Positions 892-5,242 are shown, counted from the stretch's first letter. The stretch: DNA of 15,366 nt from Escherichia coli (GCF_003334315.1 NZ_QOWR01000075.1), one strand, 5' to 3'. Translations and numbers: made by a program. Notes: generated by a model from the sequence alone, not told the origin.

Positions 892-1122
892 AAAAAACTC
901 CTTATTCAGTTAAAAGAAAAACACCTTGCAAGCCTGACGGCTTCAAAGTGCATTGATTTTGATTATTTAGAGAAGAATGTTTTTCTGTCCCTCTAATACC
1001 TATTATTACATATAAAGAAACATTTGTCAATACCTTTTCACAAAAAATCTGATCTTTTTCATGTACTTACATTTTTTCTTAGCAATTCGTGCTCTTCTGT
1101 GTAGTGCTATTCTTCCTTATTG

Positions 1123-1145
1123 TCTAAAACGCTCTAAAACGCGTT
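1123..1145. repeat. Tandem 10-bp direct repeat tctaaaacgc x2 running into the palindrome AACGCGTT
   Basis: Seen directly: tctaaaacgc at 1123-1132 and 1133-1142, followed by a degenerate third unit (gttctaacga). Lies in the non-coding region upstream of the minus-strand operon. Confidence 0.4.
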
Positions 1146-1461
1146 CTAACGAGGTTTTGATAAAAGCAATACATTCCCTTATGTAATGGCTGTTTAGCTC
1201 GCCAGAGGCTTATTTAAGGGGCTTATTTTGTATTTGTTAGGTATATGAAAAGGTGATGGTAGATATAAGATAGAGAGTCACTTTATAAAACGCTCTGTAA
1301 AGCCCTGTAGTGAGTTTATATATGTAGGCAATGCGTTTCCATTCCCTACCCTGCTTAATGCTGTTAGAGAAGCATTTAGACCCCTTATTTTTAATTACCT
1401 AAAGTATCCTCTATACATTCCTGTTATGAAACACCTCTGAATCCTTCATAAAACACATTAT

Positions 1462-1517
1462 GACGCAAAGAACACTTTTCTAAGGTGATTCCCTTCCTGA
1501 ATGCTGTTTCTTGCGTC
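1462..1517. repeat. Imperfect inverted repeat, 13-nt arms (gacgcaaagaaca ... tgtttcttgcgtc), 30-nt spacer
   Basis: Seen directly; 11 of 13 positions are complementary. Possible operator or RNA hairpin. Confidence 0.4.
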
Positions 1518-1560
1518 AAAGAGCTACACAGAGCTTATAAAGCTATTATTAATAATAAAG

Positions 1561-1620
1561 TAGACAAAGTAAGTAAGATAAGTAAGTAAGATAACTAAGA
1601 TAGATAAGATTAATAAGATC
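1561..1620. repeat. Degenerate AT-rich short tandem repeat (aagtaag / ataagat units)
   Basis: Seen directly: aagtaagataagtaagtaagataactaagatagataagattaataagatc. Confidence 0.6.
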
Positions 1621-1630
1621 AGAATTCTCT

Positions 1631-1660
1631 TTCGGTGTCGCCTCTGGCTTTTCCACCGAA
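1631..1660. other. Hairpin-forming inverted repeat ttcggtg-N16-caccgaa
   Basis: Seen directly: 7-bp perfect arms with a T-rich loop (tcgcctctggcttttc), located just before the first 42-bp direct repeat. Confidence 0.35.
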
Positions 1661-1663
1661 AAC

Positions 1664-1828
1664 AATTACACAACTACAGAGAATAACGAGAGTTATTAAA
1701 TGTAGAAAGTGGAATTGTATTGAGGCTTAGTGAAATTACACGAGGAAAGCAGAGTGTAATTGAGCTTTAGCCGCTCTCTCTTCGAGTAATTACACAACTA
1801 CAGAGAATAACAGAGTTATTAAATGTAG
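1664..1828. repeat. Pair of 41/42-bp direct repeats (aattacacaactacagagaataac(g)agagttattaaatgtag) about 124 bp apart
   Basis: Seen directly: copy 1 at 1664-1705, copy 2 at 1788-1828, differing by a single g indel. Each contains the short palindrome aataac...gttatt and is followed by similar sequence (gaaagtggaatt / gagggtaatt). Confidence 0.7.
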
Positions 1829-1917
1829 GAGGGTAATTAAGAGTTAGAGAGAGTTAACACATAAGCAATCAGTATGATTGGTTAGGTGATTACTCTTCTG
1901 CGCACAGCGCAATAGTA

Positions 1918-1960
1918 TTTCTTCGTGGGCGTTACCGCCAACGATAGTTACACGAAGAAA
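1918..1960. other. Strong stem-loop: 10-bp perfect inverted repeat tttcttcgtg / cacgaagaaa enclosing a nested ggcg-ttac-cgcc hairpin, within a locally GC-richer segment (about 1860-2075); candidate structured RNA or protein-binding site
   Basis: Seen directly. The 75-codon minus-strand ORF over this segment has no obvious RBS or protein-like composition, so I favour a structural element over a CDS. Confidence 0.4.
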
Positions 1961-2128
1961 GTAACGCTTTGCTTTCGGTGTGAGCGGAACGGGCCAGCCA
2001 CGAAGCCCAAAGGTAGCGGAGTAAGGCTGCTTGCCAGAGAGTGAAGCTAACGCCGGAAGGCAAAAGATCATATAAATAAATATATAATATTATAATTTAA
2101 TAAGTAATTTAATAAATGATCTAATAGG

Positions 2129-2262
2129 TAACAGAATTCTGTGGGGGTGTCTAACAGTTTTCTGTGGGGGTGTCTAACAGAATTCTGTTAGGGTGGGGTA
2201 ACAGAATTTTGTTAGGGTAAAAATCTCTTTAAAAGTTAAGATTAACAGAATTCTGTGGGGGG
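2129..2262. repeat. Repeat family A: palindrome (t)AACAGAATTCTGT(T) followed by G-runs (gtggggg); direct repeat ctgtgggggtgtctaacag x2
   Basis: Seen directly: copies starting near 2129, 2176, 2199 (degenerate, aattttgtt) and 2243, with a fifth at 2538. ACAGAATTCTGT is a perfect 12-bp palindrome, a likely dimeric DNA-binding-protein site. Confidence 0.7.
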
Positions 2263-2325
2263 TAGCTCACAGTGACCTACCCCCTAGTTCACTATGACCT
2301 ACCCCCCTAGGTCACAGTGACCTAT
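2263..2325. repeat. Iteron cluster 1 (family B): three roughly 21-bp units tag(c/t)tcac(a/t)(g/a)tgacctacccc; the third is the perfect palindrome AGGTCACAGTGACCT
   Basis: Seen directly: 2263-2284, 2285-2307 and 2307-2325; the palindrome is at 2309-2323. Confidence 0.7.
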
Positions 2326-2349
2326 ATAGTATAAAGAATATTATTTATA

Positions 2350-2377
2350 TTATTTAATTATAGTATTTAATTATAGT
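2350..2377. repeat. AT-rich 13-bp tandem repeat (atttaattatagt x2) in a roughly 50-bp A+T tract; candidate DNA-unwinding element
   Basis: Seen directly, lying between iteron families B and C. Iterons next to an AT-rich tract is the classical origin layout. Confidence 0.45.
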
Positions 2378-2385
2378 ATTGGTGG

Positions 2386-2483
2386 AACTCATTTCCTAGG
2401 TAGGTAGGAACTAATTTCCTAAGTAGGTAGGAAACCACTTCCTAGGTTACTTCCTAAATAGATCGGAAATCATTTCCTAGGTG
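2386..2483. repeat. Repeat family C: (a/c)tttcctagg(taggtagga) units at roughly 22-bp spacing (4-5 copies); contains the palindrome CCTAGG
   Basis: Seen directly: tttcctagg at 2392, tttcctaag at 2414, cttcctagg at 2438, cttcctaaa at 2451, tttcctagg at 2473. Confidence 0.6.
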
Positions 2484-2498
2484 TTATTTATACTTATC

Positions 2499-2535
2499 GG
2501 GTATCAGTTTTGATAGGGGTATCAGACTTGATAGG
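2499..2535. repeat. Repeat family D: gggtatcag(tt/ac)ttgatag x2 in tandem, 19-bp period
   Basis: Seen directly at 2499-2516 and 2517/2518-2535. Confidence 0.6.
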
Positions 2536-2556
2536 GGTAACAGAATTCTGTGGGGG

Positions 2557-2618
2557 TAGTTCACTATGACCTACCCCTAGTTCACTGTGAGCTACCCCTA
2601 GTTCACTGTGAGCTACCG
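2557..2618. repeat. Iteron cluster 2 (family B): three head-to-tail 21-bp units tagttcac(t)(a/g)tga(c/g)ctacc(cc)
   Basis: Seen directly: 2557-2577, 2578-2598 and 2599-2618, with exact 21-bp periodicity (two helical turns), as expected for Rep-binding iterons. Confidence 0.75.
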
Positions 2619-2712
2619 TTACATCCAATCATCTGTCGATGTAACATATCGTTACTACCAACTTTCTTACAAAGAGCATTTCAGATAGCTGAATGTAACC
2701 TCTCGTTACATC
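2617..2712. repeat. Palindrome-rich block: gttacatc-N12-gatgtaac, gtaac-atatc-gttac, and cgttacatcc repeated (2617 and 2703)
   Basis: Seen directly. Confidence 0.5.
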
Positions 2713-2729
2713 CATTTGTCACATAGCAC

Positions 2730-3210
2730 TCTGTGTAATGCCTTTCTATGTGTGTGCCATAATCCCCCTATATTCCCTGTGTAAATCATAGAATAATGCT
2801 CTCTATTCCCTGTGTAATTCCCTACTAAAAATCAATGAAAAAGTAGCTTAAAGTTGCAATTCTTACTTTCTTCACTTTTACATCACTTTCGCAAAGCCTT
2901 GTGTAATGCGGCTTACAGAGCACCATCAGAAATTGTTGGCTAAAAATTATTCTGCTTGTTTCTGAACGAGTTTTCTCGTTTGTGCAAATTTTAAAATTTA
3001 TTTTGTTTTTACAGCCTTATTTCGTGTAATGCGTGGCATAGCAAGCCCTTTTCTTGTGTTGTCAAGACATTTGGCAACGTTCAAACATCTGTTTAGAAAT
3101 GCCAAATTGTTGATCTAACAAATAAACCTGTATAAACAGAACACCATTTAATCTATTCCCCTGTGTATCCATTAGGCATACCAAATGAATACAGCTAAAT
3201 CGTGTAATAT
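2730..3210. repeat. Dispersed motif (c)tgtgtaat(g) recurring about 7 times, including the direct repeat tattccctgtgtaa x2 (2770-2818)
   Basis: Seen directly near 2733, 2779, 2811, 2901, 3026, 3161 (variant tgtgtatcc) and 3203. The region is non-coding and leads up to the recombinase gene. Confidence 0.45.
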
Positions 3211-3262
3211 TCCGTACCCATAAGGCTTGAAACAGACCAAATGAATACGGTATACTCATTTG
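3169..3262. promoter_or_regulatory. Putative res/hix-like recombinase binding region: duplicated motif cat(t/a)aggc..accaaatgaatac(a/g)g plus the palindrome caaatga-N11-tcatttg
   Basis: Seen directly: copy 1 at 3169-3194, copy 2 at 3217-3250, palindrome at 3238-3262 with the palindromic core gtatac. The location immediately 5' of a resolvase-family gene is where res sites sit in Tn3-family and plasmid resolution systems. Confidence 0.4.
3227..3256 (+). promoter_or_regulatory. Putative sigma70 promoter of the recombinase gene (-35 TTGAAA, 18-bp spacer, -10 TATACT)
   Basis: -35 at 3227-3232, -10 at 3251-3256, about 45 nt upstream of the ATG at 3302. The -10 lies inside the palindrome, which would suggest autoregulation. 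Sequence-pattern inference only. Confidence 0.35.
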
Positions 3263-3301
3263 CATTTAAGTAGTGCCAAATCGACACATTAAGAGGATTT
3301 T

Positions 3302-3841
3302 ATGAGCAATATCGGTTATAAGCGTGTGAGCACTGTAGATCAGAACACTGATCGCCAGCTTGCAGGAGTAACTCTCGATAAAGTCTTTGAAGATAAGCTG
3401 TCTGGTAAAGACACTAACCGCCCAGGCTTACAAGCGTGTTTAGCCTATCTGAGAGAAGGCGACACCTTACACGTGCACTCTCTCGACCGTTTAGGACGTA
3501 ACACCTTAGACATCCTTGCTTTAGTTGAACAACTTAATAATCGAGGTGTAATTGTTCGATTTCACAAAGAAGGAATCATTGCAGACATTACAAGCGCGAT
3601 GGGAAAGATGATGCTTACGATGTTGTCGGCAGTTGCAACGTGTGAACGTGAACTGATGTTAGAACGTAAACGAGAAGCGCAAGCCGTCAATCCTACAAAA
3701 CGTGGTAATGGAAAAGCAGTGGATCGAGAAGGTATAAAGAAAGCCCTTTCTGATGGCCTGTCAGTGCGTAAAACCGCCGAGAGCTTTAATGTTGCTCCTT
3801 CAACGGTGCAACGTATCAAGAAGGAAGAAGAGGAGGCGTAA
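3302..3841 (+). CDS. Small serine recombinase (resolvase/invertase family), 179 aa
   Basis: N-terminal GYKRVSTVDQ is the catalytic-serine motif of serine recombinases. Conserved blocks FEDKLSG, RPGL, LDRLGR and SAVATCERELMLER resemble the Tn3 TnpR, Gin and Hin layout. A C-terminal HTH is present (LSVRKTAESFNVAPSTVQRIKK). RBS AAGAGGA lies 5 nt upstream. Not identical to the Pin or Gin sequences I recall. Confidence 0.85.
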   Translation: MSNIGYKRVSTVDQNTDRQLAGVTLDKVFEDKLSGKDTNRPGLQACLAYLREGDTLHVHSLDRLGRNTLDILALVEQLNNRGVIVRFHKEGIIADITSAMGKMMLTMLSAVATCERELMLERKREAQAVNPTKRGNGKAVDREGIKKALSDGLSVRKTAESFNVAPSTVQRIKKEEEEA

Positions 3842-3850: not shown

Positions 3851-4077
3851 GATATTTGAGAATTGTCGCTGCGTGGACCTGACGGCGCTGATCTTCTCGT
3901 TAAGCGATGATCACGTATGCGCCGATTTCAGAGAAAAAGACAGTAACTGAACTCACTATGAAGGCTAAACGTATCTTTACACTTGATGAAAACGTTCAAA
4001 AAACAACCTAACCCCAAAATTCAACAAATTGCAACACATTGTTTTTAAAAGAAAATTAAATCTACATCAAATATTGG

Positions 4078-4106
4078 TTGACGTAGATTGAGGTGAATAG
4101 TAGACT
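4078..4106 (+). promoter_or_regulatory. Putative promoter for the small hydrophobic ORF (-35 TTGACG, 17-bp spacer, -10 TAGACT)
   Basis: Pattern match only; would give a leader of about 70 nt before the ATG at 4183. Confidence 0.25.
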
Positions 4107-4182
4107 ATTAGGGTAAATTACCACCCTTGTAACATCATTTAATGCATGTTCTAATCTTCCTATCGTAAAACCGGAGGAAGTT

Positions 4183-4341
4183 ATGCATTTACTTTCAAAA
4201 CATCTTCACACTATTCACTTTCTCGTTATTGATGTATTCGTTGTGGCTATTAGTTACCGCATTTGCATCGCTTCCAGTGAAGAGATGGACGCTGTTGCAA
4301 TTATTGCTCAAGCAATGGCGATATTAACTAAACGACTTTAA
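4183..4341 (+). CDS. Small hydrophobic protein, 52 aa (candidate small membrane protein or toxin-like peptide); absent from the ORF track
   Basis: Hand translation: MHLLSKHLHTIHFLVIDVFVVAISYRICIASSEEMDAVAIIAQAMAILTKRL, stop TAA at 4339-4341. Strong RBS GGAGGAAG 5-6 nt upstream. A roughly 20-residue hydrophobic stretch is consistent with one transmembrane helix. Confidence 0.35.
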   Translation: MHLLSKHLHTIHFLVIDVFVVAISYRICIASSEEMDAVAIIAQAMAILTKRL

Positions 4342-4354
4342 TAATTTCACTATC

Positions 4355-4398
4355 AGGCGCATAAACACATCTTTGATCGCTGGATGTGTTATGCGCCT
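4355..4398. terminator. Long near-perfect inverted repeat (aggcgcataaacacatc - N11 - gatgtgttatgcgcct) between the two convergent small ORFs; candidate bidirectional terminator or operator
   Basis: Seen directly: arms at 4355-4371 and 4383-4398, 16 of 17 positions paired with one bulged A. The position between convergent ORFs fits a terminator, though flanking T-tracts are weak. Confidence 0.45.
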
Positions 4399-4407
4399 AC
4401 TGGTGAT

Positions 4408-4560
4408 TCAATCCTTAAGCCATTTCAACTCACTAAGGAGTTTTCTTTCTTCGTTCTCTCGTTGCTTTCGCTCTAGCCAGGCTTTTCCCTCTGGCGTAGA
4501 CAGGAACTTACGAGCGTGAATCTTGCGGTTATTACGTTTTATAGCTGCAATGTTTTTCAT
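4408..4560 (-). CDS. Small basic protein, 50 aa, hypothetical; absent from the ORF track
   Basis: Hand translation of the minus strand: MKNIAAIKRNNRKIHARKFLSTPEGKAWLERKQRENEERKLLSELKWLKD, stop TGA (complement at 4408-4410). A possible RBS (AGAGG) lies upstream. I do not recognise a family. Confidence 0.3.
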   Translation of the reverse strand: MKNIAAIKRNNRKIHARKFLSTPEGKAWLERKQRENEERKLLSELKWLKD

Positions 4561-5166
4561 CGTGTTGCCTCTGTATTCATATGAAAATTAACAAGTTACA
4601 TACTACACAGGGAGACTACGCATAAAACACAATACAAGTAAAGATACATTTTCAAGACAATAGGAGCCATAAAGCGCCTTTGATGGTTATACCAAAAAAT
4701 AAGCGCCGTAGGCGTATCCACTAAAAAGGGCTTTTTCACAAAAGCTATGAAGTCTTAGCAGTTCTTCTCTTATCAGGCACCCGTTGTACTCCGGTGGACG
4801 AAACCGTGCTAGAGCTTGATTCTTTCCCGATCAAGTTAGGTTTTGAAGAGGTGGGCTTTAATCCACTATTGCACTTAAAACTCTTCCCATCATTTAGCCT
4901 GTTTATCCTCTGCAACGTCTCACGACGTGTAGCATCATTGGACACCGCGCCAGGTGTGGAACATCTTGCTAAGAGTTTTGGTAGAAGGTTTAGAGACGGT
5001 GGCACGTCTTCCAGCTTCAAAGGAACTTGTTACGAGGTTGAGCCTGGGAACTACTCGCCCATACGTGTTACACTACCAAAGCCCATAACAACGTATAGGC
5101 GTTTGTAAGTGATAACAGAAGATACAATTTCTTAGAGAAGTTAAGCTAAGTTATTGATTTTCTTGA

Positions 5167-5242
5167 TGGTGCCGATAATAGGAGTCGAACCTACGACCTT
5201 CGCATTACGAATGCGCTGCTCTACCAACTGAGCTATATCGGC
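5167..5242 (-). tRNA. thrW: tRNA-Thr (anticodon CGU), thrW-like
   Basis: The minus strand reads GCCGATATAGCTCAGTTGGTAGAGCAGCGCATTCGTAATGCGAAGGTCGTAGGTTCGACTCCTATTATCGGCACCA: cloverleaf features, anticodon loop TTCGTAA, encoded CCA. It sits downstream of proA as in E. coli. Confidence 0.95.

Follow-up and report, generated by a model that had tools for sequence, protein, structure and literature searches.

Variable hotspots of anti-phage genes are known in P4-like and P2-like phage satellites and in prophages (PMC9122126), and defence islands have been described in Escherichia coli (PMC10121019). A second close comparison is with the type I toxin–antitoxin (TA) systems of enterobacteria, such as hok/sok and tisB/istR-1. 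Here we describe a locus that recalls both, in a stretch of E. coli DNA of 15,366 nucleotides (nt) from NZ_QOWR01000075.1; this whole stretch is called the window below. At positions 4183-4560, two genes for proteins of fewer than 60 amino acids (aa) converge on a long hairpin. One (4183-4341, plus strand) encodes a 52-aa peptide with a single predicted transmembrane (TM) segment, and the other (4408-4560, minus strand) encodes a basic 50-aa protein. The explanation that we consider probable, and hold with moderate confidence, is that two independent modules meet here, near the tRNA-proximal end of a satellite-like island at the thrW tRNA gene, with the hairpin at their junction.

An earlier sequence-only reading had proposed two convergent open reading frames (ORFs), the first hydrophobic, with a ribosome-binding site (RBS) and a possible promoter at 4078-4106, and the second highly basic, on either side of an inverted repeat at 4355-4398. 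All of these features are recovered, the ORFs with exactly the coordinates given above and the repeat somewhat longer than proposed (4347-4406). The description of the ORFs as invisible to the ORF track is right insofar as both fall below its 60-aa limit, but they are not unannotated, since RefSeq/PGAP calls both as hypothetical proteins in matching genomes (WP_165352201.1, WP_000550449/50.1, WP_000788776.1). No recognised family had been seen for either, and searches of Pfam, PHROG, NCBIfam and PADLOC likewise gave nothing usable. The suggested likeness to a toxin or membrane-peptide locus holds in part. The peptide has a single TM segment, its Shine–Dalgarno (SD) sequence and start codon are locked in a predicted leader structure, and it sits in a slot that in relatives carries defence or toxin genes, but the ORFs and the repeat appear not to be one locus, no toxin family is matched and no conserved antisense promoter was found.

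In the proposed mechanism, the first module is conserved, lies on the minus strand and would consist of a structured RNA followed by the 50-aa protein, transcribed inward from the attachment (att) end of the island and heading a variable cargo slot. The second module, on the plus strand, would be island cargo: a sigma-70 promoter, a leader of about 70 nt that locks the SD sequence and AUG, and the 52-aa single-TM peptide. The hairpin would act at the RNA level as a 3'-end stabiliser and would partly stop transcription in both directions, in a non-canonical way, so that less antisense read-through passes from either unit into the other. The peptide itself would be a membrane-active effector, toxin-like or anti-phage, that stays translationally silent until triggered. 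This role as a membrane-active cargo peptide is offered tentatively, as the most likely function but with less than even confidence.

Two genes with independent distributions

The region 3900-4800 of the window is 100% identical to E. coli DCE7 (NZ_CP090611.1) and is matched in 589 of 5,426 complete E. coli genomes, nearly always on the chromosome. The matches fall into mosaic classes. About 170 E. coli genomes carry the whole 4100-4620 stretch, and most of the 562 matching genomes have 4410-4620 only, which means the 50-aa gene alone. Some carry 4297-4620, which comprises a diverged allele of the 52-aa gene (allele C, the window having allele A), the hairpin and the 50-aa gene. Another 74 genomes match at 60-80% identity, and the examples listed for this class span 4100-4334 only (allele B). 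For example, in an island with allele B (L005), a YecR lipoprotein gene lies downstream, and neither the hairpin nor the 50-aa gene is present.

In Klebsiella, Enterobacter and Raoultella, the gene order is constant: tRNA-Thr and att, 0.6-0.8 kb or so of non-coding DNA, the 50-aa gene, variable genes, a small recombinase and then the island core. The content of the variable slot differs by locus and includes type IIG restriction–modification (R-M) genes of the Eco57I/BsuBI type, Abi_C, an nSTAND/AAA_16 ATPase, DUF2971, a helix-turn-helix (HTH) protein with DUF3944, and others without an assigned family; in one relative, a YafQ toxin gene adjoins the ATPase gene. The 52-aa gene therefore lies between conserved flanks, and what stands between these flanks varies among relatives and includes recognised defence genes; the peptide itself matches no known defence system in PADLOC. 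Because the distributions are independent and the architecture is constant, the 50-aa gene is read as a conserved gene that flanks a cargo slot, and the slot is occupied here by the 52-aa gene. Judged by their distributions, the two genes are not a functional pair but independent neighbours across a module boundary.

This bears directly on the idea that the two small proteins cooperate, as a membrane toxin and a basic immunity protein or regulator, with the inverted repeat as a shared operator or terminator. The genes are indeed adjacent and convergent in the 170 or so genomes mentioned above, and a basic 50-aa protein could in principle bind nucleic acid. However, the 50-aa gene occurs with many other cargos and in other genera that lack the 52-aa peptide, and a homolog with 71% aa identity is found in circular elements of 13.5-14 kb or thereabouts that also lack it. 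Since the peptide in turn occurs without the 50-aa gene, cooperation is largely refuted by distribution, and we regard it as very remote.

The 52-aa gene and its product

The 52-aa gene starts with ATG, 3 nt downstream of the RBS GGAGGAAG (4172-4179). Three alleles are known from the loci fetched, all of which are from E. coli. Allele A occurs in the window and in L001, L004, L014 and L015. Allele B, in the L005 island at tRNA-Gly, has 58% aa identity to A, and allele C (L003, L016, L017) has 35% aa and about 53% nt identity to A. All three are intact at 52-55 aa, with start and stop aligned. Differences by codon position are 22/17/35 between A and C and 27/19/33 between B and C. The comparison of conservation and Ka/Ks that the sequence-only reading had suggested thus favours coding, with dN/dS of about 0.2-0.6 among these alleles and the 50-aa family kept across genera. 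Because three diverged alleles stay intact and changes at third codon positions are in excess, the 52-aa ORF is, as far as its sequence can tell, a genuine protein-coding gene. Allele A alone is annotated in RefSeq; B (in L005 and about 74 E. coli genomes) and C (in L003, L016 and L017) are intact and have no RefSeq coding-sequence annotation.

One could suppose that AT-rich intergenic DNA has produced one or both of these frames by chance, given that both ORFs are short and match no family. This is hardly credible, as the frame, length, start and stop are kept at about 50% nt identity with an excess of third-position changes, and the 50-aa family is conserved across genera.

The product has the features of a small membrane peptide. 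The Kyte–Doolittle maximum over 19 residues is 1.9-2.1 in all three alleles (2.1 in A), and the single predicted TM segment lies at residues 11-31 or so, in line with the hydrophobic character first proposed. C-terminal to the hydrophobic segment, each allele has an acidic linker and then a helix with the pattern AII..A.A...K/R. AlphaFold2 (AF2) models the peptide as one long helix with a predicted local distance difference test (pLDDT) score of 82 from a thin alignment. No Pfam match is found even at E <= 10, there is none in NCBIfam or PADLOC, and the sole PHROG match is to a family of unknown function (E 0.05). When 1.84 billion representative proteins were searched exhaustively with a profile of the three alleles, the matches were confined to these same allele groups.

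A locked leader and the type I toxin model

The cassette around the 52-aa gene carries its own expression signals. A sigma-70-type promoter, TTGACG-17-TAGACT, lies at 4078-4106 on the plus strand (9/12 matches), in a scan whose number of sites is no higher than in shuffles, and its -10 element falls within the palindrome AATAGTAGACTATT. Alleles A, B and C, although only about 50% identical elsewhere, all have the same TTGAC in the -35 element and the same GTGAATAGTA..CTATTA in the -10 region. Downstream, at 4141-4189, the leader is predicted to fold into a hairpin (free energy, dG, -13.5 kcal/mol; z -3.3) in which the anti-SD CUUCCU binds the SD AGGAAG, and UGCAUG binds the region of the start codon. 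All three leaders have both the SD sequence and the AUG paired in their minimum-free-energy structures (z -2.7 to -3.7; dG -13 to -14 kcal/mol). Anti-SD and SD change together (CUUCCU/AGGAAG in A, CCUCCU/AGGAGG in B and GAUACCU/AGGGGGUAUC in C), and an upstream GCAUG pairs with the start region in each. By analogy with type I toxins, such a lock would be the signature of a tightly translation-controlled product; small membrane proteins that are toxic typically have one.

The left edge of the cassette is marked by a 48-nt block (3896-3943, plus strand) with 95-100% identity between alleles, while the sequence around it is only about 50-70% identical (recombinase 69%, downstream cassette about 50%). 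The block overlaps the start of a 34-aa ORF (3907-4011), whose N-terminus MIT(Y/F)APIS(E/D)KK is retained in the islands with allele C. On the minus strand, a terminator scan finds an intrinsic-terminator-like hairpin (4089-4059; dG -12.5 kcal/mol, z -5.7) followed by a U-run, 4045-4089 in all, with the tail UUAAUUUUCUUUU. It overlaps the -35 element of the promoter, and a weaker hairpin with a T-run can be read by eye at the same place in allele C.

These observations raise the question of a type I TA system, in which the 52-aa peptide would be a membrane toxin repressed by the leader hairpin and by a minus-strand antisense RNA. The antisense RNA would come from read-through of the 50-aa transcript or from an internal promoter near 4327-4300 and would end at the 4089-4045 terminator. 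The small single-TM peptide with its charged C-terminus, the conserved promoter, and the SD/AUG lock kept in all alleles with compensatory changes are what one would expect. Read-through is plausible since the hairpin between the genes has no U-tracts, and an antisense RNA ending at the terminator-like hairpin just upstream of the promoter would span the whole gene. The antisense model is kept alive by this feature, since the 4089-4059 hairpin would stop read-through only after it had crossed the whole 52-aa gene. The locus also adjoins a resolvase and an iteron region, and plasmid stability modules cluster near resolvases and iteron regions.

Against this, the peptide matches no Hok/Gef, Ldr, TisB, ShoB, Ibs, ZorO, DinQ, Fst or other toxin family in Pfam, NCBIfam, PHROG or PADLOC, permissive thresholds included. 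The candidate antisense promoters are weak, their positions are not conserved in the three alleles, and Rfam finds no antitoxin RNA. Read-through antisense also cannot be a general mechanism because downstream of allele B in L005 both the hairpin and the 50-aa gene are missing. We consider a type I TA system possible, on the unlikely side. A divergent small RNA of the IstR/OhsC style, complementary to the leader, was rejected, because the sole repeat (4040-4054/4188-4202) has the wrong polarity for a minus-strand RNA.

The hairpin between the convergent genes

The inverted repeat forms a long hairpin at 4347-4406, with a core of 16-17 bp (4355-4398, one bulge) and a 6-bp extension. It lies 6 nt past one stop codon and 2 nt past the other. 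As RNA, it has a dG of -32.4 kcal/mol on the plus strand (z -7.8) and -28.8 on the minus strand (z -5.7), and none of 200 shuffles is as stable. It is present in 226 E. coli genomes, at one place per genome and at most two. Three breakpoints of homology, at 4297, 4334 and 4410, lie at or beside it. From these breakpoints, the hairpin appears to mark the mosaic junction of the two modules. Where relatives have a convergent neighbour of the 50-aa gene (L009, L011, L028), canonical bidirectional terminators stand at the same spot, and where their cargo is co-directional, there is no terminator at this position. The most likely role of the hairpin would be that of an RNA 3'-end stabiliser and partial insulator between convergent units.

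The same breakpoints could also be taken as a sign that the hairpin works at the DNA level, as a recombination or cassette-boundary site for the exchange of cargo, possibly through the neighbouring small recombinase. A recombinase gene flanks the slot, and in L004 an IS66-family element has inserted 17 nt from the hairpin. However, the hairpin is absent from most islands with the same slot and recombinases (L002, L005, the Klebsiella loci), no second copy was found in the island, and both flank orientations were never observed among the fetched loci. Arms of 16 bp with a spacer of 9-11 nt are also unlike the crossover sites of serine recombinases. A DNA-level site is thus highly unlikely.

Other identities were considered and set aside. 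A dispersed repeat, whether a repetitive extragenic palindrome or bacterial interspersed mosaic element (REP/BIME) or a miniature inverted-repeat transposable element (MITE), does not fit a hairpin that is single-copy in the 226 genomes. For an integron attC-like site, the R-box-like motifs, judged by eye, misfit RYYYAAC/GTTRRRY and lie mid-stem, and no IntI gene is present. An invertible promoter switch worked by the serine recombinase was also rejected: the best flanking pair (4022-4041/4548-4567) is only 75% complementary, and all fetched relatives share one orientation.

Several observations weigh against the explanation by two modules with an insulating hairpin and a cargo peptide. There is no U-tract on either strand of the hairpin (tails UACUGGUG on plus and UGAUAGUG on minus), and the terminator scan does not call it. 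Its efficiency of termination is doubtful because of these missing U-tracts. Variants of the stem are too scarce for a covariation test: one yields a G-U pair and the other is disruptive. As for the peptide, it has no homolog of known function in Pfam, NCBIfam, PHROG, PADLOC or the 1.84-billion-protein profile search, and its position is the one argument for a cargo or defence role. In E. coli the slot holds the 52-aa peptide only, so that the argument from association is drawn mainly from other genera.

The 50-aa protein and its structured RNA

The 50-aa gene (ATG start, RBS GAGG at 4568-4571) encodes a protein as basic as first described, with 15 lysines or arginines and a pI of 10.5. Its homologs form 57 protein clusters in Escherichia, Shigella, Klebsiella, Enterobacter and Raoultella, with the invariant core NN.KIHARKFL.T. 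Differences by codon position are 10/7/27, with third positions saturated, as in a genuine coding gene, and the family is under strong purifying selection. AF2 models a two-helix hairpin (helices 4-20 and 23-49, pLDDT 91) that has no fold neighbour in the PDB by Foldseek. No match of use was found in Pfam, PHROG, NCBIfam or PADLOC, and none by tblastn in 50,697 phage genomes.

An excisionase or recombination directionality factor (RDF) of the Xis/AlpA/Cox kind was considered for this protein and found no support, as there is no Pfam, PHROG, NCBIfam or PDB fold match and homologs also occur in the circular elements of about 14 kb, in which no integrase gene was called. The repeat that could pair the 5' and 3' parts of the 50-aa mRNA (4385-4399 with 4617-4631) is, on a rough estimate, of a quality expected by chance in this region. 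In strain E2528-C1, the IS66-family element (ISCro1-like, L004 6332-9030) interrupts the 50-aa gene in its last codons, and the 8-bp target duplication corresponds to window 4423-4430. A 22-nt inverted repeat with 86% complementarity (894-915 with 4423-4444) links the 3' ends of a 62-aa gene (903-1091) and the 50-aa gene, and it may be due to chance.

Between att and the 50-aa gene, the DNA has blocks as conserved as the gene itself, and these are taken to be non-coding because they differ by 1-nt indels. They contain the core of a conserved structured RNA-like element on the minus strand (4747-4980), co-directional with the 50-aa gene and scored at 170.9 bits by its covariance model, R1. The conserved region probably reaches to about 5045 upstream and 4695 downstream. 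RNAalifold predicts 66 pairs from 9 sequences, 20 of them with compensatory changes. In a MAFFT alignment of 8 sequences with 54 pairs, 98.1% of cells are paired against 30-44% in slid controls, and 17 pairs have compensatory changes against 0-4. A model-fitted alignment of 22 distinct sequences gives 97.1% of cells paired and 21 of 54 pairs with compensatory changes. In 500 shuffles, none reaches the observed cells paired, compensatory changes or covariation score, although the count of further pair types is not above shuffles (227/500). One covarying long-range helix closes about 210 alignment columns, and of the two strands, only that of the 50-aa gene is compatible with the conserved G-U pairs.

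Every thrW-type island examined has the structured RNA, as do 37 IMG/VR contigs and single genomes from Pantoea, Citrobacter, Winslowiella, Enterobacter, Kosakonia, Raoultella, Erwinia and Escherichia, and it spreads over at least nine genera of Enterobacterales. Rfam has nothing that overlaps 4747-4980 at E <= 5, and only the tRNA passes its gathering threshold. The RNA shares the orientation of tRNA-Thr. Of the 32 loci checked, 29 have the 50-aa gene at a distance of 157-229 nt on the downstream side, and only two Pantoea loci and a contig end depart from this. Since these Pantoea loci (L072, L077; RNA scores of about 128-130 bits) have no 50-aa homolog within 700 nt downstream, the linkage of RNA and protein is frequent but not absolute. 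An Erwinia locus has a transposase-like ORF downstream of the RNA instead. The RNA could serve the slot as a leader or regulator, or else work together with the basic 50-aa protein.

The circular elements that carry the 50-aa homolog share almost nothing else with this island, and their circularity is judged from 30-nt terminal overlaps or a 13,531-bp period. RNA motifs shared with the structured RNA (GATAAACAGGC; CACGGTTTC...CACCGG...CCTGATAA) precede the homolog in diverged form and reach a partial score only. These circular or concatemeric elements (L010-L013, L028-L029), from metagenome and isolate contigs, encode capsid-sized, TMP_3 tape-measure, Dit-like and HTH_36 replication-type proteins, and no integrase, portal or terminase gene was called in them. 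They may be a family of very small satellite-like or phage-like replicons.

The island and its surroundings

The locus belongs to a thrW-integrated, satellite-like island that carries capsid and tail genes and lies beside proA. In matching E. coli chromosomes, the order is island, tRNA-Thr, proA, proB, phoE, crl, frsA, gpt and pepD. The tRNA-Thr gene (thrW; 5167-5242, minus strand; 71.8 bits in Rfam, also called by PGAP) provides the att site at its 3' end. A 20-nt copy of this 3' end (window 5166-5185) adjoins the integrase gene some 12.6 kb away (L001 607-626), and the homology of L004 stops within the tRNA, at 5212. The att repeats define the ends of the element and hence its size of about 12.6 kb. 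The repeat beside the integrase and the end of homology within the tRNA place the locus 0.6-1 kb inside the tRNA-proximal end.

By annotation, the island begins with a tyrosine integrase, followed by a 'phage baseplate protein', a protein of 610 aa, the major capsid protein and several small hypotheticals; next come an HTH protein, about 2 kb without genes, a 'recombinase family protein' and two small hypothetical proteins. PHROG matches of its proteins are to tail/Dit-like, tape-measure, major head and replication initiator families. The 'recombinase family protein' of PGAP, at 3302-3841 on the plus strand, is a small serine recombinase of the resolvase/invertase type (179 aa; phrog_125 DNA invertase, E 1e-54), and it forms the inner flank of the slot. 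In eight relatives (L006-L009, L024, L025, L027, L030), the same position beside the iteron gap is held by non-homologous small recombinases. These are serine resolvases of about 180 aa in some loci and unusually short tyrosine recombinases (183-185 aa) in others. The swapping of non-homologous small recombinases suggests a role in multimer resolution for a replicating circular form.

The gene-less gap upstream of the recombinase covers about 2.2 kb (window ~1091-3302), and an equivalent unannotated gap of 1.5-2.9 kb is present in all relatives. It contains, especially at 2125-2620, tandem palindromic, iteron-like repeats of 18-25 bp, which fall into at least four families and have a spacing of 21-23 bp (TAACAGAATTCTGT..., CCCCTAGTTCACT.TGACCTACCCC, GGAACTCATTTCCTAGGTAGGTA, GGGTATCAGTTTTGATAG), as well as a direct repeat at 1664-1705 and 1788-1828, about 124 bp apart. 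Such a gap is probably an origin or operator array. Across it, the window and its closest genome are 87% identical, with indels.

We take CP-933H to be a relative of this thrW island. A search of the literature for the island family, as a satellite with a tape measure or under the name CP-933H, found nothing specific. Tail genes of CP-933H are reported to be induced by antibiotic in EDL933 (PMC4048457).

What looked like a toxin-type pair is thus read as two neighbours across a module boundary, where the 50-aa gene indicates the cargo slot of a family of thrW islands that has been little described. The junction itself is ordinary, and its one plausible new membrane effector is the 52-aa peptide, which could reasonably be put forward as a new small membrane toxin or as an anti-phage protein; two of the three alleles are unannotated in RefSeq. 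The module of RNA and 50-aa protein is more novel than the junction and may explain how such islands regulate their cargo. A bolder combination would make the RNA, of about 235 nt or more, and the 50-aa protein an undescribed ribonucleoprotein or cis-regulatory unit that controls the slot or the satellite life cycle, the peptide a new, locked, membrane-active toxin or anti-phage effector, and the divergence of its alleles the mark of an arms race. As a whole, this is distinctly unlikely.

Comparison with known systems

The 50-aa protein invites comparison with arginine-rich motif (ARM) peptides of the lambda N type and with Xis-like RDFs. It is likewise small and very basic with an N-terminal helix rich in lysine and arginine, and its gene lies near an att site and adjoins a structured RNA. 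However, it has no sequence or fold match to them and is present in circular relatives without a called integrase, so the likeness is one of composition only.

Like a bidirectional intrinsic terminator, the hairpin is a stable, GC-containing stem-loop exactly between convergent stops. Its stem is unusually long in comparison (16-17 bp and an extension), and it fails the standard definition of an intrinsic terminator because flanking A- or U-tracts are absent.

The 52-aa gene shares with the enterobacterial type I TA systems (hok/sok, tisB/istR-1, zorO/orzO, shoB/ohsC, ldr/rdl) a product of fewer than 60 aa that has a single TM helix, a promoter of its own, a long leader in which the SD sequence and start are occluded, and a location on a mobile element. 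It differs from them in that its product matches no known toxin family, an Rfam search gave no antitoxin RNA, and the gene exists as three alleles at 35-58% identity in a swappable cassette.

Finally, the island differs from P4-like satellites in that it lacks P4 alpha, sid and psu and encodes capsid, tape-measure and Dit-like proteins. The cargo here, a single 52-aa peptide that PADLOC does not recognise, is unlike that of known hotspots, and so are the flanks compared with those of P4-like and P2-like elements: these are a small recombinase at one end of the slot and, at the opposite end, the 50-aa gene with its structured RNA. In its plan, the slot nevertheless resembles the anti-phage hotspots of satellites and prophages, as it is bounded by conserved genes, lies in a tRNA-integrated element and holds R-M, Abi, STAND and toxin genes in its relatives.

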